Of a DNA stretch of 64,000 nucleotides, positions 46,896 through 62,162 are shown one piece after another. This DNA comes from a bacterium (lineage in GTDB: Bacteria; UBA8248). Position numbers and translations under genes: made by a program. The DNA is taken from positions 800,001 to 864,000 of the forward strand of contig CBDBBI010000010.1 of NCBI GenBank assembly GCA_965202625.1. The letters run 5' to 3'. How positions within the stretch are numbered: the first letter of the stretch is position 1; the number at the start of each line of letters is the position of its first letter. The notes below the pieces were generated by a model that saw only the letters and a list, made by a program, of their open reading frames with translations, searched no databases and was not told where the DNA came from.

Positions 46896-48146
46896 TTGTA
46901 TAGTGCGCTGCAGGGTCTGCTGAGCCTGGATTCAGGGAGAATCGCGGACGACATGAAACACCCCTTTGCCTGCCCGGACACGGGTGGAAGCCTGCGGGGC
47001 AGCTACGACCTCGAATGGGTGAAGGCGTGCGTGGACAGGGACGAGGTCGCACGCAGACCCAAGGGCATCTGGCGTTGGCATGAACTGTTGCCCGTCCGGA
47101 ATGAGAAAAACGTAGTCTCGCTCGTCGAGGGCGACACCCCCCTCATTCACGCCGAGAGGCTGGGGGAGGCACTCGGATTCAAGAACCTCTACCTTCTGGA
47201 CGAATCGAGAAACCCCACCGGCTCGTTCAAAGATCGCGGCGGCTCCGTCACCATCAGCAAATGCAGGGAAGTCGGCGTCGGTAGGATAGTGCTGCCATCA
47301 TCCGGCAACGCGGCCGCCTGCTTCAGCGCCTACTGCGCGCGGGGGGGGATCGAATTCATCGGCTTCGTGCGCGAGGATAGCTCCGCCGTTCATTGCCTCC
47401 AAGTGGGCGCATATGGAGCGTTCACGCTCCTCGTCGAGGGCGATCAGGGCGTGGGCGGCCGCTTCGCCGAGGAGGTGTCGAAGGAGCTGGGCTGTCTGCA
47501 CGCCACCCTACCGCGAAACCTGTACCGAATCGAAGGAAAAAAGACAGCCGCTTATGAGATCGCGGAAAAGCTCGGCTGGCGCGCGCCCGAGCGCGTCGTC
47601 TGCCCCACCGCGGGCGGCACGATGGCCCTCGCGATGGAACAAGGCTTCCGAGAGTTACTCGCCTTGGGCTGGATCGAGAGGATGCCGGCGATTGACGTCG
47701 TGCAGGCCGGGGGTTGCGCGCCCATCGTAAAGGCACTGCGCACGGGCGGAAGAGTCGCGCCCTGGGGCGAGGTGCGGACGAAATCGGCAGGCCTCACGAG
47801 TCCTTTCCCGGGGGCGGGCGACCGCGTGGCCGATGCCGTGCGAGACTCCGGAGGACAAGGCGTGGTGGTGAACGATGAGATGAACATCGAGGCGGAGTTC
47901 CTCATCGCCAGGAGCGAGGGGCTGTTCCTGCAACCCGCCTCGGCAGCGTCTGTGGCCAGCCTCATGGAGAGCGCGGATCGGCCGGAGCGTCCGGCGGCGG
48001 ATGAAACCATCGTCTGCATCGGCACGGGCACGGGCAAGAACGCGGCGGAGGTGGCAAGCGCGGTGCTCGGAAAGCCAGAGCAGATTTCACCGGATATAGA
48101 TGCGTTCAAAAAGGCATACGCATCCTGGAGAGGCGGCCGCCTGTAG
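46896..48146 (+). CDS. Threonine synthase-like PLP enzyme
   Basis: EGDTPL, NPTGSFKDRG, YRIEGKKT, IGTGTGKN; TTG start after GAGGAG. Confidence 0.88.
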   Translation: MYSALQGLLSLDSGRIADDMKHPFACPDTGGSLRGSYDLEWVKACVDRDEVARRPKGIWRWHELLPVRNEKNVVSLVEGDTPLIHAERLGEALGFKNLYLLDESRNPTGSFKDRGGSVTISKCREVGVGRIVLPSSGNAAACFSAYCARGGIEFIGFVREDSSAVHCLQVGAYGAFTLLVEGDQGVGGRFAEEVSKELGCLHATLPRNLYRIEGKKTAAYEIAEKLGWRAPERVVCPTAGGTMALAMEQGFRELLALGWIERMPAIDVVQAGGCAPIVKALRTGGRVAPWGEVRTKSAGLTSPFPGAGDRVADAVRDSGGQGVVVNDEMNIEAEFLIARSEGLFLQPASAASVASLMESADRPERPAADETIVCIGTGTGKNAAEVASAVLGKPEQISPDIDAFKKAYASWRGGRL

Positions 48147-48457: not shown

Positions 48458-49708
48458 ATGGCGATGGTGACAGAGAAAACCCTTCAGAAACTGGCCATCC
48501 TCGGCGGACAATCCTTCGACGACAGGGAAGGCCCGCCCGGCGCGCGACGGTGGCAGAAATACCGGCGAAAATTCCAGGGTTCGGACGCGCCGGCGATATT
48601 CCCCGTCCCCTTCTCCGGCGGACGTGTCATGCCGCTTCTCTCCACCATGATGACAAACGCCTGCAGCTACGATTGTCATTATTGTCCCATGCGCGCCTCG
48701 CGCGATATGCCGCGCTACGCCTTCGGCCCCGATGAGCTGGCCGAGGCTTTCATGGTGCTGAGGAGAAAAAACCGCGCCCAAGGGCTTTTTCTCACAAGCG
48801 GAATTCCGGGCAGCGGGATCGCCGGCGTGGACAGGATGATAGCGGCGGCCGAGCTTCTGCGCTTCAAGTATCGTTTCGGGGGCTACATTCACCTCAAAAT
48901 GCTGCCAGGGGTTCAGGACACCCAACTCAACCGCGCCGCACAGGTGGCCACGAGGCTTTCGGTGAACCTTGAAGCCGCCACCGAGGGGGGCCTTCGCGCC
49001 ATGGCACCCGAGAAAAAACTGGACGCCGACCTCAGACCCTCCCTTCGACACGTAGGAAAAATCGCGCGCGAGGCGTCTGTGGAAAACACCGGACTCATCC
49101 CCGGAGGCGTCACAACGCAGTTCATCGTGGGGGCCAGCGGGGAGAGGGACGTAGACGTTCTTGCGGCGTCCCACTCCCTACAGAAGGAGGGACTCCTACG
49201 GCACGCGCACTTCAGCGCCTTCAAGCCGGTTGCGGACACGCCGATGGACAGCCTGCCCACAATCTCCAAAACACGCGAGCACCGCCTCTATCAGGCAGAG
49301 CGCCTGCTCCGGGAGTATGCGTTCACGCTCGATGAAATTCCCGTCTCACAAGGCAATCTGGCACTTGATGAGGACCCCAAAATGGCGTGGGCGAAGCAAA
49401 ACCGCTCGAAATTTCCCGTAGAGATCATGACCGCCGACCCGAAAACCCTGATGCGCGTGCCGGGAATCGGCCCTACGTGGGCGAAGCGCCTCGGCAACGT
49501 AAGGAGAGAGGCGCACTTTCGGGACTTCAAAGACCTCGCACGCCTGGGTCGCATTCGACAATCGGCGGCGGGCTGGCTCACCCTACGCGGCAAACGCCTG
49601 GGGCCAGAGCCGGTATTCGCCACGCAGCTGAGCCTCGACCTGCGAATGAAGCGCAAAAGGCGCGCTTTCGCCTCGAGACAAACCCTGCCGCCCTGCTCGT
49701 TTCGATGA
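48458..49708 (+). CDS. Putative DNA modification/repair radical SAM protein with helix-hairpin-helix
   Basis: CSYDCHYC, YIHLK, RLSVNLE, REHRLYQA, LMRVPGIG (TIGR03916-like architecture). Confidence 0.88.
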   Translation: MAMVTEKTLQKLAILGGQSFDDREGPPGARRWQKYRRKFQGSDAPAIFPVPFSGGRVMPLLSTMMTNACSYDCHYCPMRASRDMPRYAFGPDELAEAFMVLRRKNRAQGLFLTSGIPGSGIAGVDRMIAAAELLRFKYRFGGYIHLKMLPGVQDTQLNRAAQVATRLSVNLEAATEGGLRAMAPEKKLDADLRPSLRHVGKIAREASVENTGLIPGGVTTQFIVGASGERDVDVLAASHSLQKEGLLRHAHFSAFKPVADTPMDSLPTISKTREHRLYQAERLLREYAFTLDEIPVSQGNLALDEDPKMAWAKQNRSKFPVEIMTADPKTLMRVPGIGPTWAKRLGNVRREAHFRDFKDLARLGRIRQSAAGWLTLRGKRLGPEPVFATQLSLDLRMKRKRRAFASRQTLPPCSFR

Positions 49709-50578: not shown

Positions 50579-51223
50579 TCAAGGCCAGGCGTTCACGCCC
50601 ACAATCTTATCCAACGGACACCGATCGGCGGGCTTGAAACGGGTTCCCAGCGTATAGGCCACCGGAATAAGCGCCACCTGCATAAAATCATCCGGCACGC
50701 CGAGCAAGTCTGCCGCCTCCGCCTCACAGCGTAGATGCAGGGTGGTGAACACGGAGCCCAGGCCGCGCGACCTGAGCGCCAGCTGAAAATTCCAGACCGC
50801 CGGTATGATGGAGCCCAAGAGGCCTGCCCACATGAACCTCGGCGGATCATCAGGCAGGAAATTCTCGATGCAGGGAATCACATGAACGGGCGCACGCTCA
50901 ATATTCTCGGCCAGATAGATGGCGGAATCGAACACCCGCTCGTTTTGCGCCGACTCTCCGCGCCGCGCGGAAGCCCTGCCCTGCTCCAAATAGTCCCCCG
51001 CTCCCTTGCGGTAGAGAGCACCGAGGCTTCGCCGCAGGGCCGCATCCGTCACGACCACCCAACGCCAGCCCTGGCGGTTCGACCCCGTGGGCGCCTGAAC
51101 CGAGAGATGGAGGCACTCCATCACGACTTCAAGAGGCACCTCGCGGTCGAAATCCAGGCGCTTCCTCACCGAGCGCGTCGTAGAGAGCAGCCTATCGGTC
51201 GTTTCGAGATCAAAATCCGCCAT
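50579..51223 (-). CDS. Nitroreductase family protein
   Basis: TTRSVRKR, APTGSNRQGWRWVVV, LALRSRGLGS. Confidence 0.9.
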   Translation of the reverse strand: MADFDLETTDRLLSTTRSVRKRLDFDREVPLEVVMECLHLSVQAPTGSNRQGWRWVVVTDAALRRSLGALYRKGAGDYLEQGRASARRGESAQNERVFDSAIYLAENIERAPVHVIPCIENFLPDDPPRFMWAGLLGSIIPAVWNFQLALRSRGLGSVFTTLHLRCEAEAADLLGVPDDFMQVALIPVAYTLGTRFKPADRCPLDKIVGVNAWP

Positions 51224-52161: not shown

Positions 52162-53196
52162 TTATAAATAGTCCTTCAGTTCGACCGTACGGGACAAGCG
52201 CGAGCTCGCCTCGGCCGCATACACGACGGCGAGGTTCTCGTGTGCCACTCGACCGTCGACCTCGGGCGTGCGATCCTCGCGCACGCAATCCGCGAAATCC
52301 TCGAGCGCGTCCCTGAACATGTCGCCCTCCGGCATGTCGTAGACGACATCCTCGCCCAGCGGCTCCCTGTCAACGTGGAGACGAACCGGTTCCGGTGCCA
52401 TAGAGGGGTCGCGCCACTGCTGGCCGGTAATGCGAAAATGCGCGATTCCCTTCGTGCCATGCACGTTCATCTGAAACGCCCAGGGACACGCCCAGCCGCC
52501 CCCTACGTAGGAGAGTCTCCCGTTTTCGTGCTCGAGAATCATCATCGAGGCGTCATCCACATCCTCGGTCGCATACATGCGCTTCAGTCTGGCGGTGACG
52601 GACTTTATGGGGCCGTGAAGGTAGCGAAAGGTGTCGACGTGGTGGATGGACAGCTGGATGACCACGCCCGTCGGGTTGAGTTCCCGGCTCGATCGCCACT
52701 TTTCGGGCGTCAGCTCCAGGCCACGCTCCGTGCAAAAATTACTCTCGCTCATCGAGATTTGCCCAAGCGCATCGGCCTCGATCAGCGCCTTCATACGTCT
52801 CGACGCGGCGAGGCGGCGCGCACTGTGGCCTATCGCCAGTTTAGAGCCGGCGCCCTCGACCGCATCGACGATGGCTTTGGAGTGCGCCATGCTGTGGGCG
52901 ATGGGTTTTTCGCAGTATACGTGCTTGCCCGCAACAGCCAGCGCCTCGATGTGCTCCTTGTGATTGTGGTTCGGCGTCGTAAGAATGACGGCCTCGATCT
53001 CCTCATCCCTCAAGAGCGCCTCGAAACTCTCTGCCTCCCGCGCACCGTATCGCTCCATGAAGTCGCGCCGCTTCTCGGGCGTTCGGCTGAAGCACGAGAC
53101 GAGCCGCATCTTGCCTCCACGCAGCGCGGCGTCGGCGAGCACGTTGGACCAACGCCCCAGGCCCATTGAGGCGGCACGCACGGGTTCAAACAACAT
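52162..53196 (-). CDS. Gfo/Idh/MocA family oxidoreductase
   Basis: MGLGRW, TTPNHNH, GKHVYCEKP, IHHVD. Confidence 0.9.
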   Translation of the reverse strand: MLFEPVRAASMGLGRWSNVLADAALRGGKMRLVSCFSRTPEKRRDFMERYGAREAESFEALLRDEEIEAVILTTPNHNHKEHIEALAVAGKHVYCEKPIAHSMAHSKAIVDAVEGAGSKLAIGHSARRLAASRRMKALIEADALGQISMSESNFCTERGLELTPEKWRSSRELNPTGVVIQLSIHHVDTFRYLHGPIKSVTARLKRMYATEDVDDASMMILEHENGRLSYVGGGWACPWAFQMNVHGTKGIAHFRITGQQWRDPSMAPEPVRLHVDREPLGEDVVYDMPEGDMFRDALEDFADCVREDRTPEVDGRVAHENLAVVYAAEASSRLSRTVELKDYL

Positions 53197-53298: not shown

Positions 53299-53754
53299 CT
53301 AGATGCTCACCTGGAAATTCGGCAGACGGGCGTCTCCCCCATCGGCCGAGCGCACGCTCAAATCCTCCAGAGTGGTTTCCCGCAGCGTCTTCTCTATCGC
53401 GTCTTCTAGTTTTTTCCACAAAAGACGGCTTCCGCAGGTCGGAATGTGCGGGCACGGAACCGAAGGCGGGCCCTCGCCGCAGTCCACCGGCTGAATCGTC
53501 TCCCCCACCGCAAACAAAACATCCTTCATGTTGATTTGGGATGGCGGCAGCGCCAGAACGTAGCCGCCTCCCGGCCCTCTCGTGCTGCTCACCAGAGAAG
53601 CCCTCCGCATTTTCACGAACAACTGCTCAAGGTAGTGCTGGCTGATTTTCAGCCCGCCGGCTATCTGGGGCAAGGGAACGGGGTGCGCTTGCGAATGCCT
53701 AGATAGTTCGATCATGGCGAGCACGGCGTAGCGTCCCTTGGTCGATATCTTCAT
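53299..53754 (-). CDS. Rrf2 family regulator (IscR/CymR-like, three Cys)
   Basis: MKISTKGRYA, YLEQL, STRGPGGGY, C..C..C cluster ligands. Confidence 0.92.
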   Translation of the reverse strand: MKISTKGRYAVLAMIELSRHSQAHPVPLPQIAGGLKISQHYLEQLFVKMRRASLVSSTRGPGGGYVLALPPSQINMKDVLFAVGETIQPVDCGEGPPSVPCPHIPTCGSRLLWKKLEDAIEKTLRETTLEDLSVRSADGGDARLPNFQVSI

Positions 53755-54578
53755 TCGCGGCGTCCCCCCGTCTCGCTTCTCGGCATTGTCCGCTCAACGA
53801 ACGCTTTTCGGCCCGCGGGGGTTTGCGCTTTCCGGCGCCGCGCGAGGGCGCAAGCCGGACAACGCGGGTCTTGCGCCACCGTCAGTCCCCCAAAGGCGTC
53901 ACTCCAAAAATCAGCCGTCAGTAGCCTGTTCAACCAGGTCGGTTTCCGCCCTGCGAGAATCCGGAGCGCGTCGGCCGCCTGCGCCATGCCTACGAAACCC
54001 GCCACGGCACCAAAGACGCCCGTCTCCGCGCAGTCAAGACCCTTTACGCTCACGCCCTCATCCCCCACCAAGCACCGCAAACACGCACTCTCGCCTGGGA
54101 AAATCGTCATTACCTGCCCAAAAAATCGCAAGACACCCCCCATCACCCAAGGCTTGCCCAACGAGGCGCACGCGCTGTTCAGGGCGAGCTTTGAGGGTAA
54201 ATTATCACTTCCATCAACCACGACGCCGTAGGGCGCGATGATTTCGGCGGCGTTCTTCGGCGTGAGCTTTAGAGGAATCCTGTCCACCGACACGCACGTG
54301 GAGAACCGCGATAGGAAATCCGCGCCCGAGTCCACTTTCTTCCGGCCAACATCCTCCGTTCGGTGGAGAATCTGGCGCGCCAGGTTGTCAAGGGTAACGA
54401 CGTCGTGATCCACCATCCCGATCCGCCCCACACCAGAGGCCGCAAGAGCGAGAGCAGCGGGCGAACCCAGACCGCCGACCCCCAGAACAAGCGCGGACGA
54501 AGCCGCCAGCGCGCCCGCGGAACTTGCGCAGTCCCCAAACGCGCCTTCGGACACCGCCAGAGCGTTCGCGCAGTTCAC
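53751..54578 (-). CDS. MoeB/ThiF E1-like adenylyltransferase lacking the N-terminal RYSR helix
   Basis: GVGGLG, DHDVVTLDNLARQ, DGSDN, CLRC and CPAC zinc site, DCAETGV; GTG start overlaps the JAB gene stop. Confidence 0.88.
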   Translation of the reverse strand: MNCANALAVSEGAFGDCASSAGALAASSALVLGVGGLGSPAALALAASGVGRIGMVDHDVVTLDNLARQILHRTEDVGRKKVDSGADFLSRFSTCVSVDRIPLKLTPKNAAEIIAPYGVVVDGSDNLPSKLALNSACASLGKPWVMGGVLRFFGQVMTIFPGESACLRCLVGDEGVSVKGLDCAETGVFGAVAGFVGMAQAADALRILAGRKPTWLNRLLTADFWSDAFGGLTVAQDPRCPACALARRRKAQTPAGRKAFVERTMPRSETGGRRE

Positions 54579-55069
54579 GCTCCCGCCTCCTCTACGATTT
54601 CCAGCTCGCTTGGGACGAAAGTCTTCCGCCCCCCATCCCAGGAAAACACCTTCTGGCCGCAAACCAAGCCCTCACGCACGCTCATGACGACATGCTCCGC
54701 TTCCGGAAACGATGGGACGTCGCCAAAGGGAAGCGCCGCGTCCTTGTCCTCCTGCGAGAAATAGGCGTCCTCGTCCGGGTGGCTGTGATATATGCCGCGA
54801 ATCACCTCGCCAGTTTCTCTCGCGCGCTCAAGAATGCGTTTAAACTCGAAGGGATCAATCAGAAAAGCGCGGCGTGCCGTCCGGGGATAGGCTTGGGGGT
54901 CTCGCCCATGCATTTCGTTCTGAACGTTTCTGCAGGGTAGAAGACGGAAGCGCGCGCATATCCGCTCCTCCGCGCGCGGCGGACCGAGGATCAGGCCACA
55001 ACATTCATCGGGATAGGCCTCCCGCGCACACCGGCGCATCACCTCTACCTGTTCACGATTCAAGCGCAA
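54575..55069 (-). CDS. JAB/MPN+ (Mec-like, M67) metallopeptidase
   Basis: YPDECCG and YHSHPDEDAYFSQED JAMM motif. Confidence 0.92.
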   Translation of the reverse strand: MRLNREQVEVMRRCAREAYPDECCGLILGPPRAEERICARFRLLPCRNVQNEMHGRDPQAYPRTARRAFLIDPFEFKRILERARETGEVIRGIYHSHPDEDAYFSQEDKDAALPFGDVPSFPEAEHVVMSVREGLVCGQKVFSWDGGRKTFVPSELEIVEEAGA

Positions 55070-55070
55070 A

Positions 55071-56033
55071 TCAAGCCTCCTGGCGCGCCTCGCTCAAATA
55101 TCTGTCTCCGCCATCAGGAAACAGGGTGACGATGACGCCCCTTTCTATCCGCTTCGCCACCTCGCGGACTCCAACGAGCGCGGCGCCTGCGGAGTGGCCG
55201 ATAAAAAGCCCCTCCTCTTTCGCGGCCCTCTCGGCCAACACGTAGCTTTCCTCGGTGCTCGCCAAAATCAGCCGATCGTGGACGCTCTCATCGTAAATTC
55301 CCGGGCGAATGGCCGTGGGGATATGCTTCATGCCTTCGAGACCGTGGAATGACTCTGAAGGCATCACCGCGTGAACCTCAACGTCAGTCTTCCTCGTTTT
55401 CAGGCCGCGTCCTGTGCCCACAAGGGTGCCCGTCGTACCGAGGCCAGCGACGAAATGCGCCACGCACCCATCGGTCTGTTCCAAAATTTCCACTGCCGTA
55501 GTTTCGGCATGGGCGCGAGGGTTCGCCGGGTTGTCGTATTGACATGGCAAGAAGTATTTCTCCGGCTCATCTCGATACATTTTCGCCGCGAGACGCTGCG
55601 CGCCGTCCGAGCCTTCCATCGGATCCGAAAAAATGACGTCGGCCCCATAGCCCCGCAACGTCGCCTTGCGCTCATCGCTCGCGTTCGCCGGAAGGACGAG
55701 GCGGACGGGAATTCCCAGCGCCGCTCCAATCATGGCGTAGGCGATGCCGGTATTCCCGCTCGTAGAATCGAGAAGAACCTTGCCGGAGCGCAATCGCCCG
55801 GATTCCAAGCCATCCCTTACCATGAAGAGCGCGGGCCGATCCTTCACCGAGCCGCCTGGGTTGAACCACTCCGCTTTGGCATACGCTTCCACATGAGGGA
55901 ACTCGCTCCTGAACAAGTTGAGTGCGAGCAGGGGTGTGTTGCCGATACATTTGAGAATGGCAGAATCCTCTATGTCCCTGAACACGCTTCCGGAATTTCG
56001 CACCGTGGATTCGATCATTGGCATGGCCCCCAT
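55071..56033 (-). CDS. cysM: Cysteine synthase, CysM-like
   Basis: IGNTPL, NPGGSVKDR, STSGNTG, GLGTTGT, FPDGGDRYLS. Start may be a few codons downstream. Confidence 0.88.
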   Translation of the reverse strand: MGAMPMIESTVRNSGSVFRDIEDSAILKCIGNTPLLALNLFRSEFPHVEAYAKAEWFNPGGSVKDRPALFMVRDGLESGRLRSGKVLLDSTSGNTGIAYAMIGAALGIPVRLVLPANASDERKATLRGYGADVIFSDPMEGSDGAQRLAAKMYRDEPEKYFLPCQYDNPANPRAHAETTAVEILEQTDGCVAHFVAGLGTTGTLVGTGRGLKTRKTDVEVHAVMPSESFHGLEGMKHIPTAIRPGIYDESVHDRLILASTEESYVLAERAAKEEGLFIGHSAGAALVGVREVAKRIERGVIVTLFPDGGDRYLSEARQEA

Positions 56034-56042
56034 TCTGACGTC

Positions 56043-56696
56043 CTAAAACGTTCCAGGAGACGATCGCGTTCGCTTCGTGGCGCCGCGTGAAAGATCAAAA
56101 CGGGCCTGAGTAGTCGACCCCACCGTGTCCGCCCCATCAACTAGGCGCCGCAAGGCCCTAGCTGCTAGCCACGCGCCCAAAACGCCCTGAGTCGCCGCCA
56201 TTTGCGCCTCTCTACCGGGTGAGGCCGCGTCGCCCCCCTCAGACGCTCCACTCCCCTCGAGAATCTCTGCCACGGCGCCGCGCACGACAATTCTTTTTGC
56301 GGCTTTGAACGCCGCGAAATCCTCAACGGATTCATCGCCCAGCCAAACAAGCAAGTCGAAATGCGCCCCGACTACCTCGTTCGGACGATACCGAATGAAC
56401 CGCGCATCCGGGTTGAGGCTCTGGACACCACCGCAGGCGCCGAGAAATGGAGAGAGGGAAAATTCATCTCGAAGCCGCCCACCCTCGGTATCGAATCCAT
56501 CGAGTGGACACCACCCAATGCGGCCTACACCTGCGGCCGCCAGGTAGACCAAGGCGAGGGCCGCGGCGCCTTCTTCATTTATCGAAAACGCGATAAGGAC
56601 GGATGAAGCCAAAAGACGCTCTTGCCCGACTCCTCCCACCTCGGGAAGCAGAACGTGGCGGCTGTATCGCTGGATCTGCTCCTCCGTCAAGTTCAA
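56043..56696 (-). CDS. Catalytically degenerate MoeB/ThiF-like protein
   Basis: Keeps RYSRHVLLPEVGGVGQERL, YLAAAGVGRIG, LNPD and GVLGAWLAARALRRL, but has no GxGxxG, no NLxRQ and no CxxC. Confidence 0.8.
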   Translation of the reverse strand: MNLTEEQIQRYSRHVLLPEVGGVGQERLLASSVLIAFSINEEGAAALALVYLAAAGVGRIGWCPLDGFDTEGGRLRDEFSLSPFLGACGGVQSLNPDARFIRYRPNEVVGAHFDLLVWLGDESVEDFAAFKAAKRIVVRGAVAEILEGSGASEGGDAASPGREAQMAATQGVLGAWLAARALRRLVDGADTVGSTTQARFDLSRGATKRTRSSPGTF

Positions 56697-56729
56697 AGAG
56701 CGGCTCTCCTTTCAGGCTGTAGAAAGCGG

Positions 56730-57008
56730 CTACAGCCCGCCCGCAATCGCTGGCACGATAGAGAGTTCATCGCCATCGCTCACCGCCGTTCCCTCGCCTT
56801 GCAAGAAGCGAATATCCTCCTGATTCACGTAGATGTTCACGAAACGGCGCAACCTAGCTTCATCGTCATAGAGACGCTGGCGAATGCCGGCGAATCGCCT
56901 ATCAAGGTTCTCAAGTACCTCCCTAACGTCCTCGCCCTCGATCTCCACGGCGTCTCGCTGCTGCGTGAACTCTTGCAAAGGTGTCGGAATACGAACCGTT
57001 ACCGCCAT
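56730..57008 (-). CDS. Ubiquitin-like sulfur carrier (CysO/MoaD/ThiS family) ending GG-L
   Basis: VTVRIPTPL, RFVNIYVNQEDIRFL, IVPAIAGGL*. Confidence 0.92.
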   Translation of the reverse strand: MAVTVRIPTPLQEFTQQRDAVEIEGEDVREVLENLDRRFAGIRQRLYDDEARLRRFVNIYVNQEDIRFLQGEGTAVSDGDELSIVPAIAGGL

Positions 57009-57060
57009 TTCCGCCTCCTGATCTGAAAACCCCTCTTAGGGGATGGTCGAAATAAAATTC

Positions 57061-58020
57061 CTAACGAAACTGCCGCTCCAGACTATAATATCTCTCCCAG
57101 CCATCGGGTATGACCACCACCATGTTCTCATCCGGATGCATCCGCCTAGCCACGCGCAGGGCGGCGCAAACAGCTGCGCCCGCCGAGATGCCGGCGGCCA
57201 TACCTTCCTCCCGGCTCAGGGATTTACTCATGTCGTAGGCCTCTTCATCCGTCACTTGGACCACCTCGTCAATGATATTTCGATTCAAAACTCCGGGAAT
57301 GAAGCCGGCGCCAATCCCCTGTATTTGGTGCGGTGCCGGCTCTCCGCCAGAGAGAACGGGAGAGGCGGAGGGCTCCACGCCGACGATCAGGATTTGCGGC
57401 CTCCTCTCCTTCAAAACCTCGCCCACACCCGTGATTGTCCCCCCTGTGCCCACGCCCGCCACGAAGGCGTCCACCGATTCCATACCCATGTCGCGCAGAA
57501 TCTCCCGCGCCGTGGTTCTGCGATGAATTTCCGGATTGGCCGGATTGTTAAACTGCTGGGGCATAAAATAATCCGGATTCTCCGCCAAAAGGGCCTCCGC
57601 CTTCACGAGCGAGCCGTACATGCCCCCTTCGCTTGAGCTGAACACCACCTCCGCCCCGTAGCCCGTGAGCAGTGCGTGCCGCTCGTGGCTCATGCTCCTG
57701 CTCAAGACGATGATCGTCCGATAGCCTCGAATGGCGCCGATGAGCGCGAGACCGATGCCCGTGTTACCGCTCGTAGGCTCGATGATCGTTCCGCCGGGCT
57801 TGAGCAAACCGCGCCGCTCGCCGTCCAACACCATACTGAGCGCAATACGATCCTTCACGCTTCCGCCGGGGTTGTATTGCTCCAGCTTGGCGAACACGCG
57901 CGCTCCCGACGAATCGGGGAGACGCCGCAGCTGGACGAGACTCGTGCTCCCGATACCATCAAGTAGCGAGGGGAGCGCTCTCAAAATCCGAGGCGGGCGG
58001 CCCCGGGTGCCCAACGCCAT
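57061..58020 (-). CDS. cysK: Cysteine synthase A
   Basis: NPGGSVKDRIA, EPTSGNTGIGLA, QQFNNPANP, GVGTGGT, HQIQGIG. Confidence 0.92.
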   Translation of the reverse strand: MALGTRGRPPRILRALPSLLDGIGSTSLVQLRRLPDSSGARVFAKLEQYNPGGSVKDRIALSMVLDGERRGLLKPGGTIIEPTSGNTGIGLALIGAIRGYRTIIVLSRSMSHERHALLTGYGAEVVFSSSEGGMYGSLVKAEALLAENPDYFMPQQFNNPANPEIHRRTTAREILRDMGMESVDAFVAGVGTGGTITGVGEVLKERRPQILIVGVEPSASPVLSGGEPAPHQIQGIGAGFIPGVLNRNIIDEVVQVTDEEAYDMSKSLSREEGMAAGISAGAAVCAALRVARRMHPDENMVVVIPDGWERYYSLERQFR

Positions 58021-58072
58021 CAGAGTTCCCCCTTCCCCCAAAATCCCCTCACGCGAAAACCCTAACCCACGA

Positions 58073-58107: not shown

Positions 58108-58215
58108 TCTAAATTCCGTGATTTTACATTTTCTCCAGCACACTCCCAATATATTCTCCTTATGCTACATTCTCATGGCGCGCACGTCTTATGATATGAT
58201 GTAAGGAGAGTGGAC

Positions 58216-59037
58216 ATGAGAAAATCCCCGACGATTCCCCCCATCGCCTTGACGATAGCGGGATCAGACTCCGGCGGCGGTGCGGGAATTCAAGCCGACC
58301 TGAAAACTTTCGGTGCGTTCGGCGTCTATGGCGCCTCGATCATCACCGCCCTGACGGCGCAAAACACCGTGGGCGTCCAAGCGACGCACGACGTACCGCC
58401 CGACTTCATCGGAGCGCAACTCAACTCGGTGTGCTCTGACCTTGCAATCGCGAGTGCCAAAATCGGTATGCTCGCCACGGCCGAGGTCATCGAGGTAATC
58501 GCCGAGAGGGTGAAAGCGCACGCGGTCGCTCCCGTCGTGCTTGACCCGGTGATGGTCGCAAAAAGCGGGGATCGGCTTTTGCTGTCTGACGCGAAAGACG
58601 CGCTCGTTGAAAAGCTCTTTCCGTTGGCGGAAATCATCACTCCCAACGCGGATGAGGCGCGGGACATTCTAGAAATAGGGGAAATCAGAAACCTATCGGA
58701 CATGAAAACGGCCGCCCGCATGCTCCACGAGCGAGGAGCCAGACGCGTTTTGTTGAAGGGGGGACACATCACCGAAGGGGCAGTAGATTTCTTTTTCGAC
58801 GGGGAAAACGAGGTCACCCTGAAAGGCAGGCGCGTCGACACGCCACACACCCACGGGACGGGGTGCACGCTGTCCTCGGCCATCGCCGCGAGCATGGCGC
58901 TGGGCGCATCGACCATTGAGGCGACGAGGCGGGCGAAGCGCTTCATTCAAGGCGCCATCGAGAACGCACTGGACATCGGAAACGGAAGAGGGCCGCTTAA
59001 CCACATGTATCGCCAACGCAAAGAGGAACTGCCATAA
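58216..59037 (+). CDS. thiD: Hydroxymethylpyrimidine/phosphomethylpyrimidine kinase
   Basis: LTIAGSDSGGGAGIQADLKT, LDPVM, LKGGH, THGTGCTLS. Confidence 0.95.
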   Translation: MRKSPTIPPIALTIAGSDSGGGAGIQADLKTFGAFGVYGASIITALTAQNTVGVQATHDVPPDFIGAQLNSVCSDLAIASAKIGMLATAEVIEVIAERVKAHAVAPVVLDPVMVAKSGDRLLLSDAKDALVEKLFPLAEIITPNADEARDILEIGEIRNLSDMKTAARMLHERGARRVLLKGGHITEGAVDFFFDGENEVTLKGRRVDTPHTHGTGCTLSSAIAASMALGASTIEATRRAKRFIQGAIENALDIGNGRGPLNHMYRQRKEELP

Positions 59038-59114: not shown

Positions 59115-59528
59115 ATGAATCGTCGTCCCCATGACAAGCCCTTGCGCGTGCGGGAGCGCGAGGCCTCGAGTGGAGAGCTGCCCGTGCCCGGAGGCAGGAG
59201 CGTGTTTCGAATTCTGCTGGACGAGGAGAGCGTGGGTGCCAAACGCTTCGCCCTGCTCGTCAACGAGTTCGAACCAGGGTTGACCTCTGTCGCTCACAAG
59301 CACGATACAGAGGAACACGCTTTCTACGTCATCAGCGGAACAGGGGTGGTCGAGGTGGAGCGAGAGAAAATATACGTGACGCCGGGAGATGCGGTTTTCG
59401 TGCCACCGGGCAAAATGCACCAAATATCGAGCACGGGTGACGCGCCACTCAAATATGTGGTTCTATACTCTCCGCCAGGTCCCAACATGGCGCTCAGGGA
59501 AAAAGGCGCCTATGGACTCGCCGAATGA
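59115..59528 (+). CDS. Cupin domain protein
   Basis: HKHDTEEHAFYVISG and PGDAVFVPPGKMH. Confidence 0.88.
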   Translation: MNRRPHDKPLRVREREASSGELPVPGGRSVFRILLDEESVGAKRFALLVNEFEPGLTSVAHKHDTEEHAFYVISGTGVVEVEREKIYVTPGDAVFVPPGKMHQISSTGDAPLKYVVLYSPPGPNMALREKGAYGLAE

Positions 59529-59612: not shown

Positions 59613-62162
59613 ATGAACACTGTGCTCTCGTTTCAGGTCGTTCCCAAGGTTCCTTCCGGATTGAAAGAACTTGAAGCCATCGCCAGCAACGTTGCCTTTG
59701 ACTGGAACCATCGTGCGCGCGCGCTGTTCAAACAACTGGACAAAACCCAGTGGGAGGAGTGTCACTACAACCCCGTCAAGATGCTGGGGTGCGTCTCTCA
59801 GAGGCGGCTCAATGAAGTAGTGCGCGATGCGCATTTCCTCAGCGAGATGAAAAGCGTCCTGAAGGAGCTTCACGCATATCTCGAAAAACCCACCTGGTAC
59901 CAAAACTTGCCCGAAAGCGAGAGGGACGCCGACCTCAGCATCGCCTATTTCAGTATGGAATTTGGGCTGACGGAATCCGTGCCCAACTACTCAGGCGGCC
60001 TAGGCGTCCTCGCCGGCGACCACATGAAATCCGCAAGCGACCTAGGGCTGCCCCTCATCGGTGTCGGGCTCTTATATAGCCAAGGATATTTTCGGCAACA
60101 CCTTGGTCCTGACGGCTGGCAGCAAGAGCGCTATCCGGACAACGATTTTCATCTCATGCCCCTCCATCTCGAGCGCGACGAGAGCGGCGCACCCATCACG
60201 GTAGAGATCGACTACCCCGACGGCCTTCTCACCGCGCAAATCTGGCGTGTTCAGGTTGGCCGCAACCCTATCTATCTCATGGACGCGAACATCCCCGAAA
60301 ACGCAACCTCGCTGCGCGAAATTACTTTAGCCCTTTATGGTGGGGACATGGAGACGCGAATTCGCCAGGAGATATTGCTCGGCATCGGCGGCGTAAGGCT
60401 GCTCCACAAGCTGAATCTCCCGCCCGTCGTCTGCCACATGAACGAGGGGCATTCCGCCTTCCTTGCACTCGAGAGAATCCGATTCTCGATGGAGAAATTC
60501 GGGATCAACGCCGGCACTGCTCGAGAGTTGACCTCGGCGAGCAACATCTTCACGACGCACACGCCCGTTCCGGCGGGCATCGATATTTTTCCACCCGACA
60601 TGATGGAAAAATACTTCCGCGCTTATGCGAAATCCCTCTCGATGGACTGGGACGACTTTCTGGGACTGGGCCGGGTCCACCCCGAACAGGGGGCTGAGCC
60701 CTTCAACATGGCCGTCCTCGCACTGCGCCTCTCCTCTGCGGCGAACGGCGTCAGCAAACTTCATGGAGAAGTCTCCCGAAAAATGTGGCAATCGATGTGG
60801 CCGGAAGTCCCCGAACACGATATCCCCATCGACTCGGTCACGAACGGCGTTCATTTCCCCACCTGGGTGTCTACCGAGATAAAAGGGGTGTTCGATCATT
60901 ACCTGGGCGGCGTTTGGGCGGATGAGACGGACAACTCCGAGATATGGGAGAGAGCCGCCTCCATTCCGGAGAGCGAGCTCTGGGCTGTCAAAGAGAAAAA
61001 TCGCGAGCGTCTCATCCGCTTTTGTCGTGAACACATCCTCAGGGGGCCGTTGGGGGGCATCCACCACTCCGGCGGCGCCATACTCCCCAACCCCAAAGCC
61101 CTGACGATTGGGTTCGCCAGACGCTTCGCCACCTACAAGCGCCCTACCCTTTTGCTCAAACGGCCAGAACGCCTCGTCTCACTCCTCACGAACGAAGAGA
61201 AGCCCATTCAGATCATATTCGCCGGCAAGGCGCACCCCAAAGACATGGAAGGCAAGAGCTTCATCCGAGAACTCATTCATTTCGCCCGAAGAGAGAACGT
61301 GCAACAGAAGCTTATATTCCTGGAGGATTACGACGTCCACGCCGCGCGGCAACTCGTGCAAGGGGTGGATTTATGGCTCAACAACCCGCGTCGCCCGCAA
61401 GAAGCGAGCGGAACGAGCGGCATGAAAGCCGCCGTCAACGGCGCCTTGAACCTGAGCATACTGGACGGCTGGTGGGCGGAGGGGTATTCGAGTCGTCTGG
61501 GGTGGGCCATCGGCGGCCCGGAGGAGTATGACGACCCTGGCTATCAAGATGAGATGGAGTGCGAGAGTTTATTTAATATTCTCGAGCAGGCCGTGGTTCC
61601 CCTTTTCTACGAGCGCAACCAGGAAGGGGTTCCGCATCGCTGGATGGAGATGGTCAAAAATTCCCTAAAATCCCTTTGCCCGCTATTCAACACCACTCGA
61701 ATGGTTCGTGAATACACCGAGAAATTCTATCTGCCCTTAGGGGCGCACCACGCGCGCCTCATGGAGGATGAGAGGGCGGCCGCGAAGGCGCTCTCCGAGT
61801 GGAAAAAGTGCGCGAGAGACGCATGGCCCGGAGTCGAGATCACCCGCATTTCGATGGCGCAAAACGGCGTCGTCCCGCTGGGCACGAAAATGAGGATCGA
61901 AGCGGAAGTTTCTCTTGGAAGGCTCTCGCCGGAAGAGGTTCGTATCGAAATTTATGAGGGCGCCATGAAGGAGCATAATCACTTAACCGGCGGTGTCGCC
62001 TCCCCCATGACCTTCACGGAAGACTTAGGGGGCGGCACTTACCGTTTTCAAGGCGAGATCGAGTGCTGCAGAACGGGGGCGCATGGCCTCTCGGTTCGCG
62101 CTGTCCCCCATCACCCACACCTCCTTCATCCTTTCAGCCTGCACCTCCTGACATGGGGATAG
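59613..62162 (+). CDS. glgP: Alpha-glucan (glycogen) phosphorylase
   Basis: YSGGLGVLAGD, HMNEGH, FARRFATYKR, EASGTSGMKA (PLP lysine). Confidence 0.96.
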   Translation: MNTVLSFQVVPKVPSGLKELEAIASNVAFDWNHRARALFKQLDKTQWEECHYNPVKMLGCVSQRRLNEVVRDAHFLSEMKSVLKELHAYLEKPTWYQNLPESERDADLSIAYFSMEFGLTESVPNYSGGLGVLAGDHMKSASDLGLPLIGVGLLYSQGYFRQHLGPDGWQQERYPDNDFHLMPLHLERDESGAPITVEIDYPDGLLTAQIWRVQVGRNPIYLMDANIPENATSLREITLALYGGDMETRIRQEILLGIGGVRLLHKLNLPPVVCHMNEGHSAFLALERIRFSMEKFGINAGTARELTSASNIFTTHTPVPAGIDIFPPDMMEKYFRAYAKSLSMDWDDFLGLGRVHPEQGAEPFNMAVLALRLSSAANGVSKLHGEVSRKMWQSMWPEVPEHDIPIDSVTNGVHFPTWVSTEIKGVFDHYLGGVWADETDNSEIWERAASIPESELWAVKEKNRERLIRFCREHILRGPLGGIHHSGGAILPNPKALTIGFARRFATYKRPTLLLKRPERLVSLLTNEEKPIQIIFAGKAHPKDMEGKSFIRELIHFARRENVQQKLIFLEDYDVHAARQLVQGVDLWLNNPRRPQEASGTSGMKAAVNGALNLSILDGWWAEGYSSRLGWAIGGPEEYDDPGYQDEMECESLFNILEQAVVPLFYERNQEGVPHRWMEMVKNSLKSLCPLFNTTRMVREYTEKFYLPLGAHHARLMEDERAAAKALSEWKKCARDAWPGVEITRISMAQNGVVPLGTKMRIEAEVSLGRLSPEEVRIEIYEGAMKEHNHLTGGVASPMTFTEDLGGGTYRFQGEIECCRTGAHGLSVRAVPHHPHLLHPFSLHLLTWG

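Follow-up and report, generated by a model that had tools for sequence, protein, structure and literature searches.

A candidate asymmetric E1-like enzyme assembled from an inactive and an active ThiF-family protein in a sulfur-carrier operon of Nitrospinota

The window analyzed here, a stretch of 64,000 nucleotides from contig CBDBBI010000010.1 of a Nitrospinota bacterium (assembly GCA_965202625.1), carries between positions 53299 and 58041 seven co-directional minus-strand genes in the order cysK-thiS-E1i-cysM-JAMM-E1a-Rrf2, with spacing of 52 bp at most and down to 4-bp overlaps. Two of these genes encode MoeB/ThiF-type, E1-like proteins, named E1a and E1i for the active and inactive roles that we propose for them. 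Gene families were assigned with Pfam and NCBIfam, and the genes are, in the order of transcription:

57061..58041, minus strand: cysK-type cysteine synthase A, 326 aa, first gene of the operon (TIGR01139 cysK, 404 bits, cut-off 350.95; Pfam PALP)
56730..57008, minus strand: ThiS/MoaD/CysO-like sulfur-carrier (ubiquitin-like) protein, 92 aa, C-terminus ...AIAGG-L (Pfam ThiS, 64.4 bits)
56043..56696, minus strand: E1i, a degenerate ThiF-fold paralogue of 217 aa, proposed non-catalytic subunit (family profile and fold matches of the predicted model)
55071..56033, minus strand: cysM-type cysteine synthase B, 320 aa (TIGR01138 cysM, 330.9 bits, the best model but below its cut-off of 394.2; Pfam PALP)
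54575..55069, minus strand: JAMM/JAB (Mec+-like) metallopeptidase, 164 aa (Pfam Prok-JAB, 65.2 bits)
53751..54578, minus strand: E1a, a catalytic MoeB/ThiF-type adenylyltransferase of 275 aa without the N-terminal RYSR helix pair (Pfam ThiF, 203.6 bits)
53299..53754, minus strand: Rrf2-family (IscR/CymR-like) regulator, last gene of the operon (Pfam Rrf2, 122.5 bits; TIGR00738, 123.7 bits)

In terms of gene content, a ThiS-like carrier, CysM, a JAMM peptidase and an E1-like enzyme all lie in one cluster. The carrier also matches the NCBIfam models MoaD_arch (50.7 bits, cut-off 49.5) and SAMP1 (55.1 bits). With the same Pfam and NCBIfam models, no rhodanese domain was found in E1a or E1i or elsewhere in the operon, and no E2-like gene among the seven.

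E1a has the catalytic motifs of the family without its N-terminal helix. Its match to the Pfam ThiF profile (PF00899, cut-off 28.1 bits) covers profile positions 17-237 of 238 only, and its alignments, of 120-124 bits to both MoeB and ThiF, begin at residue 28 of Escherichia coli MoeB (1JW9_B) and residue 26 of ThiF. The protein contains a GVGGLG loop (G33-G38), an NLARQ motif in which R68 corresponds to MoeB Arg73, the equivalents of Lys86 (K81) and Asp130 (D125), the CxxC pairs C166/C169 and C240/C243, and C183 in an LDCAETGV block that aligns with the Cys187 block of MoeB. These ATP, zinc and cysteine motifs are invariant in all eight orthologues compared, the window's and those of seven related loci. 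In none of the eight could an RYSR helix be found, even upstream in frame: five proteins begin about 10 residues ahead of strand 1, and the other three, including the window's, carry a non-conserved leader of 22-36 residues. The start codon, a GTG preceded 7 nt upstream by GGAGG, overlaps the stop codon of the JAMM gene (GTGA), and this overlap recurs in all seven complete related loci. E1a is otherwise collinear with MoeB, with no catalytic-Cys domain insertion and no ubiquitin-fold domain.

E1i shows the reciprocal losses. Its frame is intact, as is that of E1a, and opens with a TTG codon 8 nt after GGAG, in agreement with the M-x-L-[ST]-E-E-Q start of its orthologues. The protein scores 15.7 bits against PF00899, under the cut-off, and its best NCBIfam match, confined to residues 2-70, has 52.5 bits where 633 are required; MoeB models match residues 1-70 at most. 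The sequence FSINEEG occupies the P-loop position, and none of the 26 aligned E1i members has GxGxxG, NLxRQ, CxxC, or a catalytic or conserved Cys. Kept instead is the N-terminal helix pair, QRYSRH..LLP.VGG.GQ..LL, in which Arg13 aligns with ThiF Arg11 and MoeB Arg14. The fold is kept as well, since the family profile aligns to MoeB residues 3-212, ThiF residues 3-195 and Uba4 residues 4-163, and the AF2 model of E1i (pLDDT 68.7, pTM 0.69) has ThiF, Uba4 and MoeB as its top matches (E 4e-7 to 7e-6, TM 0.55-0.60), followed by the inactive subunits SAE1 and APPBP1 (E 4e-5 to 6e-4). A first-pass annotation, made from the letters of the window, had pointed to two ThiF-family genes of one operon with reciprocal motif losses, one keeping the RYSRH helix and the fold without any catalytic motif and the other having all of these motifs without an RYSR segment. 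Both frames and both motif sets hold up when the proteins are aligned to MoeB, with E1i supplying the counterpart of Arg14 and E1a those of the P-loop and Cys187, and they hold across the family alignments.

The degenerate gene is conserved in a distinctive way. Across the 26 E1i members, whose identity falls to 42%, 32 columns are invariant, and 14 of the 32 lie within residues 7-29 (Q7, R10, Y11, S12, H14, L16, L17, P18, V20, G21, G24, Q25, L28 and L29); a C-terminal VGST.QARFD block is conserved as well. The ratio of nonsynonymous to synonymous substitution (dN/dS; Nei-Gojobori, eight sequences, 28 pairs) is 0.30 for E1i, with a range of 0.18-0.39 over the 28 pairs, compared with 0.23 for E1a, 0.14 for the JAMM gene, 0.11 for Rrf2, 0.08 for both cysK and cysM, and 0.04 for thiS. 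Between the window and the seven other loci it is 0.10 for E1i residues 1-32 and 0.25 for the remainder. Judged by these ratios, E1i is clearly under purifying selection, though it is the least constrained gene of the operon. A word-indexed search with E1i returned about 75 clusters of about 216 aa (E 7e-135 to about 4e-17). Where these carry a name, it is Nitrospinae, Nitrospinota or 'bacterium', and the next scores down belong to ordinary MoeB proteins matched over their N-terminal half only. In an exhaustive search of representative proteins, only 8 reached E <= 1e-30.

The two genes occur together in one family of Nitrospinota. Seven of nine related loci carry all seven genes in the same order, and the remaining two end at a contig edge after cysM. 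In loci L003-L011 cysK is syntenic and 72-90% identical, cysM is syntenic in the related loci, and Rrf2, whose start overlaps the E1a stop, is syntenic in all seven loci that extend that far. We surveyed 51 genomes of the phylum, with cut-offs of E <= 1e-25 for E1i and E <= 2e-89 for the E1a type (next best match 3e-65). E1i was detected in 30 genomes, all of one family, including 20 of the 22 in the window's genus and none of the nine outside the family, and its frame is intact in 29 of the 30, one copy containing a TGA. E1a-type genes were detected in 29 genomes, every one of which also carries E1i, and in none of the 21 genomes without E1i. The only genome with E1i alone (G022) has it 1 kb from a contig end, the downstream genes being off the contig. 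The first-pass annotation had proposed looking across genomes for co-occurrence of the reciprocal pattern and for a dN/dS below 1 in the inactive gene, and the 29 of 29 genomes and the ratio of 0.30 agree with its expectation. Canonical MoeB, an open frame of about 400 aa (E of about 1e-51 to 1e-65), is present in 50 of the 51 genomes; in the window's genome a rhodanese-MoeB with its own NRYSRH helix lies 434 kb away (G000 C10:1288082-1288792).

Some genomes of this survey depart from the common pattern. In G041 a TGA lies in both E1i matches (C49:225-929 and C447:7184-7528, the second covering the C-terminal half only); the gene may be broken there, or the cause may be an error of sequencing or a contig that was split. 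G029, with 16% contamination, has two E1i and two E1a loci. G023 and G034, two genomes of the window's genus that are 100% and 99% complete, have neither E1i nor an E1a-type gene and keep canonical MoeB; here the pair has been lost, and perhaps the whole operon with it. Finally, one locus has about 300 bp between cysM and the JAMM gene (L005:7626-7946) that are missing from the others.

A second phylum carries the same pairing. Among 80 representative matches of at least 190 aa, 33 have RYSR without P-loop or NLxRQ, 8 lack NLxRQ only and 26 are canonical, counts that the query profile biases toward the degenerate kind. One degenerate match, P0205, led to three loci in Binatia (L083, L084 and L086), each with an E1a-like gene, ThiS, CysM and an E1i-like gene. 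As read from their open reading frames (ORFs), L083 and L086 have the order E1a, threonine-synthase (ThrC)-like pyridoxal-phosphate (PLP) enzyme, ThiS, CysM, small ORF, E1i, the small ORF of L083 being a NIL-domain protein by Pfam. The E1a of L083 starts right at strand 1 and that of L086 is a frame without RYSR. Whole-genome ThiF scans of three of these Binatia genomes found in each exactly three genes: a full-length one, one that is N-truncated and one whose match is limited to the first 48 positions. The last two lie 930 kb apart in G051. In a sample of 81 Binatia genomes, the 10 with an E1i-like match at E <= 2e-27 are the same 10 that have an E1a-type match at E <= 1e-78, and the genes are adjacent in three. 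We inspected nine lower-scoring Binatia E1a-like genes: seven are ordinary MoeB with RYSR, and the two others (G095 and G132) are N-truncated, each of these apparent loners having an E1i-like gene within 3 kb. In G095 this is an RYSR-bearing, P-loop-less ORF 1.7 kb from the N-truncated gene; in G132 it is a partial match, to the first 55 E1i residues, located after cysM. Further such pairs were found in G130, G078 and G086. Because the reciprocal loss recurs at every orthologous locus examined and in a second phylum, it is not a product of chance. Locus L083 belongs to a genome marked unpublished (G052), and publication of its data needs the depositors' permission; the L083 gene order, the start of the L083 E1a and the G052 row of the whole-genome ThiF scans rest on it, and the same conclusions on Binatia hold without it on L084, L086 (genome G053), G051 and other genomes.

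The Binatia loci have further features of their own. By tblastn they contain no JAMM gene. The PLP enzyme that follows the Binatia E1a has an N-terminal zinc ribbon (L083:2688-4040, L086:2684-3946 and L100:159-1508), and such ThrC-like neighbours, of which the window has one too, along with the NIL-domain protein of L083, may point to carrier-dependent homocysteine or methionine chemistry besides that of cysteine. An ORF with a GLSGAGKST Walker A motif, a putative adenylylsulfate kinase (CysC), lies past the E1i-like gene, directly in L085 (6901-7518) and about 0.8 kb downstream in L086 (7025-7570); in L085 it adjoins the E1i-like gene even though E1a is 930 kb off. The carriers of the window, L083 (4103-4381) and L086 (4017-4295) all have a single further residue (L, R or A) behind their C-terminal Gly-Gly. 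Scanning metagenomes with P0139 yielded just L096, a distant locus that was not used.

The two halves also occur in single chains. Three representative matches (P0160, P0247 and P0261/P0272) are proteins of 448-481 aa whose N-terminal half has RY(S/M/L)R(Q/H) without P-loop or NLxRQ and whose C-terminal half is a complete MoeB starting at about model position 21-28. The N-terminal half of P0247 as query retrieved 37 clusters of about 460 aa, which, where named, are labelled Clostridia, Gudongella and, twice, Pseudomonadota, and we examined seven fusion loci (L106-L112; e.g., L110:4625-6440 and L106:4602-6386), which include a Gudongella isolate genome and one labelled Calditrichales. At all seven, the N-terminus of the window's E1i matches the first half and the window's E1a the second, the latter match starting at residue 22-24 in six. 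Among 36 fusions of at least 430 aa, none has a P-loop or NLxRQ in the N-terminal half or RYxR in the C-terminal half, and 24 display the full reciprocal pattern by regular expression. For the AF2 model of P0247 (21-row alignment; pLDDT 82.4, pTM 0.88), the best Foldseek matches are UBA6, UBA1 and UBA7. They extend across both halves, in alignments of about 550-580 columns (E from 5e-16, TMq of 0.53-0.62), and rank above ThiF, which spans one half only. The fusions show that a dead half with the helix and a live half without it form one unit. Their surroundings are of another kind: an IscU/NifU_N gene lies directly upstream in both loci scanned for it (L110 and L106), a divergent cysK with an Rrf2 gene stands beside the fusion in three of the seven, and tblastn found no ThiS or JAMM gene adjoining the Clostridial fusions at the seven loci. 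Since ThiS and JAMM are missing and the context is IscU instead, we do not claim the same pathway for the fusions. In phylogenetic trees the C-terminal halves of the fusions form their own clade (support 0.96) apart from the two-gene E1a, and a clade of all two-gene E1a, including a second Binatia subfamily, has a support of only 0.33; the degenerate proteins form a long-branched grade in a FastTree phylogeny.

A predicted complex places the N-terminal helix of E1i against the NLARQ loop of E1a. E1a (8-row alignment) and E1i (26 rows) were modelled with ATP as a heterodimer, the one combination tried, next to three controls. The model scored 0.88, 0.88 and 0.89 and the best control 0.00; in calibration, 58 of 80 solved complexes attained the passing mark, as did 2 of 110 mismatched pairs. 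At least 50% of the contacts are common to the runs, with a partner pLDDT of 64-66. In the model, E1i residues 6, 9-14, 16-17 and 19-20 face E1a residues 63-68, 70 and 73-74, which include the NLARQ loop, with E1i 9-14 contacting E1a 63-68, and the long C-terminal helices are paired (E1i 166-183 with E1a 186-205). On both sides, this predicted interface contains more invariant residues than chance would give (E1i, 14 observed and 5.6 expected, P = 1.3e-4; E1a, 23 observed and 13.0 expected, P = 2.5e-4). The VGST.QARFD block of E1i falls outside it.

From the anatomy of the sequences, their conservation, co-occurrence and fusions, and a predicted complex that clears its controls, we conclude that E1i and E1a probably pair as an asymmetric dimer of the MoeB/ThiF type that has one active site and works within a protein-thiocarboxylate route to cysteine of the CysO/CysM/Mec+ type. 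That the two proteins bind each other is an inference, and so are the part played by the arginine, the nature of the substrate and that of the sulfur donor. A carrier in which one residue follows Gly-Gly needs C-terminal trimming before activation, and in the window the JAMM peptidase presumably removes that residue beforehand. E1a would then bind ATP and the C-terminus of the ThiS-like carrier and adenylate it. E1i, unable to bind ATP, would dimerize with E1a through the usual ThiF dimer surface and place its invariant N-terminal helix, with Arg10 and Arg13, over the phosphate-binding NLARQ loop of E1a, contributing in trans what, in a MoeB homodimer, the other identical subunit provides. The carrier acyl-adenylate would be converted to a thiocarboxylate, CysM would form a carrier-cysteine adduct, and the JAMM peptidase would free the cysteine.

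Several observations count against such a dimer. MoeB Arg14 and ThiF Arg11 are reported to be arginine fingers from the neighbouring subunit that are catalytically non-essential, TcdA having none (PMC13139853); E1a might therefore work alone. The E1i finger itself, R13, is kept in 25 of 26 relatives, P0061 having His there. The E1i monomer model is of only moderate quality (pLDDT 68.7). E1i has the highest dN/dS of the operon and an identity of 45-60%, against 58-71% for E1a. Because the Nitrospinota pair is always in one operon, co-occurrence there is not independent of linkage. The passing score of the complex may reflect likeness or memory, since MoeB/ThiF homodimers and E1 heterodimers have already been solved, and the IscU context and separate clade of the fusions make them evidence of architecture, not of orthology.

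These points give most room to a self-sufficient E1a, a homodimer or monomer without an arginine finger, with E1i as an accessory pseudoenzyme that has some other task, such as holding the carrier or its thiocarboxylate, bringing in CysM or a sulfur donor, or controlling E1a. The dispensable finger of MoeB and ThiF and its absence from TcdA (PMC13139853, as excerpted) favour it, as do an operon devoid of rhodanese and the VGST.QARFD block, which, being outside the modelled interface, could be a second binding surface. It is also compatible with dimerization. However, the best-conserved part of E1i is exactly the helix missing from E1a, co-occurrence is strict and extends to one unlinked pair, and in the fusions the degenerate, helix-bearing half precedes the helix-less active half, so that we regard a self-sufficient E1a as unlikely. 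The lack of a rhodanese in the operon, together with the full-length rhodanese-MoeB elsewhere in the genome, also leaves some room for E1i to partner that canonical enzyme, or to bridge it to E1a, and so bring persulfide chemistry to the operon's carrier. But the canonical enzyme has its own RYSR helix, and canonical MoeB is also found in genomes without E1i, so nothing ties it to E1i; this seems very improbable. That E1i is a functionless, decaying duplicate is scarcely credible: the loss of all catalytic motifs and the highest dN/dS of the operon would fit, but 29 of 30 genomes have an unbroken frame, all 28 pairs give a dN/dS of 0.18-0.39, 32 columns are invariant in 26 sequences, a ribosome-binding site stands at the start and a second phylum has the gene. 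Decay of E1i is already contradicted.

For the pairing of E1i and E1a, the first-pass annotation had gone further and proposed an obligate heterodimer, reasoning from the arginine that MoeB contributes to its partner subunit. The trans-acting finger of MoeB Arg14 and ThiF Arg11 is borne out by the literature excerpts (PMC13139853), and the inactive/active pairing around a ThiS-like carrier is well supported by conservation, co-occurrence, fusions and the model; that the pair is obligate because of the arginine is not established, the finger being reported as non-essential and replaced by His in one of 26 relatives. The parallel that it drew with eukaryotic E1 architecture stands for the core dimer and stops there, since there is no E2, catalytic-Cys domain or ubiquitin-fold domain and the context is sulfur transfer, not conjugation.

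Contigs from RNA libraries offer some sign that the operon is expressed. Metatranscriptome contigs at least 99% identical to pieces of it occur in four marine runs of one study and cover parts of E1i (56134-56431 and 56195-56345), the thiS-E1i junction (56560-57031 and 56674-57088), E1a (53749-53924 and 53772-53946), cysM and the JAMM gene. This evidence is weak because DNA carry-over into such libraries is possible; nor can the contigs show absence, so that parts of the operon without cover are uninformative. Other genes lie near the operon in the window. A ThrC-like PALP gene (46896-48146) is 5 kb away, and there are a radical-SAM protein with an HhH domain (48458-49708), a nitroreductase (50579-51223), a Gfo/Idh/MocA oxidoreductase (52162-53196), ThiD, a phosphomethylpyrimidine kinase (58210-59037), a cupin (59115-59528) and an alpha-glucan phosphorylase with DUF3417 (59613-62162); these last six have no evident link to it.

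The closest known systems share parts of this arrangement; except for the PDB entries, the comparisons draw on excerpts of the papers cited. E. coli MoeB-MoaD and ThiF-ThiS (PDB 1JW9 and 1ZUD) have the ATP, zinc and Cys motifs found in E1a, the fold found in E1i, and likewise a ThiS/MoaD-type beta-grasp carrier with Gly-Gly. MoeB and ThiF are symmetric homodimers with two active sites (PMC12355090; PMC10557695), whereas here the helix and the active site are on separate polypeptides and one subunit is dead. The cores of eukaryotic E1s (SAE1-UBA2, NAE1(APPBP1)-UBA3 and the single-chain UBA1, UBA6 and UBA7) also combine one inactive and one active adenylation domain, and canonical E1s are described as having a single ATP site with a key arginine from the inactive half (PMC10557695). 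Unlike them, the system described here keeps the MoeB-type zinc CxxC pairs, and what it should yield is a thiocarboxylate used to make cysteine instead of a conjugate. BilD, the E1 of Bil antiviral operons, is bacterial too and joins an inactive N-terminal to an active C-terminal adenylation domain, with Arg9 coming from the inactive one in the manner of eukaryotic E1s, but it is a single chain with a CYS domain, cooperates with an E2 and conjugates a ubiquitin-like protein in phage defence (PMC10557695); in our case there are two genes, or MoeB-type fusions in Clostridia, and the two-gene form belongs to sulfur metabolism. In yeast Tcd1-Tcd2, which makes ct6A, a catalytically impaired ThiF-family paralogue, Tcd1, completes its partner's active site through an arginine finger. 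It is eukaryotic, anchored in the mitochondrial membrane and acts on tRNA t6A, and its description rests on a structural model and genetics; the finger mutant is reported to have retained most activity (PMC13139853).

With respect to the pathway, the CysO-CysM-Mec+-MoeZ system of Mycobacterium tuberculosis likewise joins a carrier of the ThiS kind and an E1-like enzyme to cysteine synthase M and a JAMM peptidase (PMC3227635), and operon type 4c of Iyer et al. 2006 combines ThiS, JAB, cysteine synthase and a rhodanese-fused E1 (PMC1779556, Table 1). In the available parts of both papers the E1 is a single rhodanese-fused protein; here it has neither rhodanese nor N-terminal helix and is accompanied by E1i. 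Bacterial sulfur-carrier E1-like enzymes are described in excerpts of four papers as symmetric homodimers, and the inactive/active asymmetry is treated there as a trait of canonical eukaryotic E1s with BilD as the sole bacterial exception (PMC10557695; PMC12355090; PMC11354881; PMC11601596). Specifically, the BilD paper, as excerpted, calls every other known bacterial E1-like protein a homodimer and names ThiF, MoeB and Cap2 as homodimeric (PMC10557695), and the Bub E1 (BubCD) is given as homodimeric as well (PMC11601596). In our literature search, neither a bacterial E1-like heterodimer encoded by two genes nor a Nitrospinota system of this kind turned up in any paper; it did not cover the E1-like superfamily survey of Burroughs, Iyer and Aravind (2009), which may list inactive bacterial E1 paralogues.

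The asymmetric E1 design is a recurrent one in bacterial sulfur metabolism, as a gene pair in at least two phyla and as a fusion in others. A bolder extension would make the window's pair one member of a widespread class of bacterial E1-like enzymes with unequal halves, absent from the papers that our search found and encoded by two genes in Nitrospinota and Binatia but as one chain in Clostridia and Calditrichales. The inactive/active design would then have arisen within sulfur-carrier metabolism, earlier than protein conjugation and independently of it. We hold this to be doubtful; were it true, no other prokaryotic proteins might be as closely related to the core of eukaryotic canonical E1s as the MoeB-type fusions with their UBA1-like core. 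If E1i and E1a do form an asymmetric dimer, the annotation of E1i-like proteins, at present mostly hypothetical, and of E1a, at present plain MoeB, would be corrected. The pair would also provide a small, tractable system for what an inactive half and its arginine helix contribute, a question open even for MoeB and ThiF, and it would mean that duplication, reciprocal loss and fusion can produce the asymmetry where there is no conjugation machinery.

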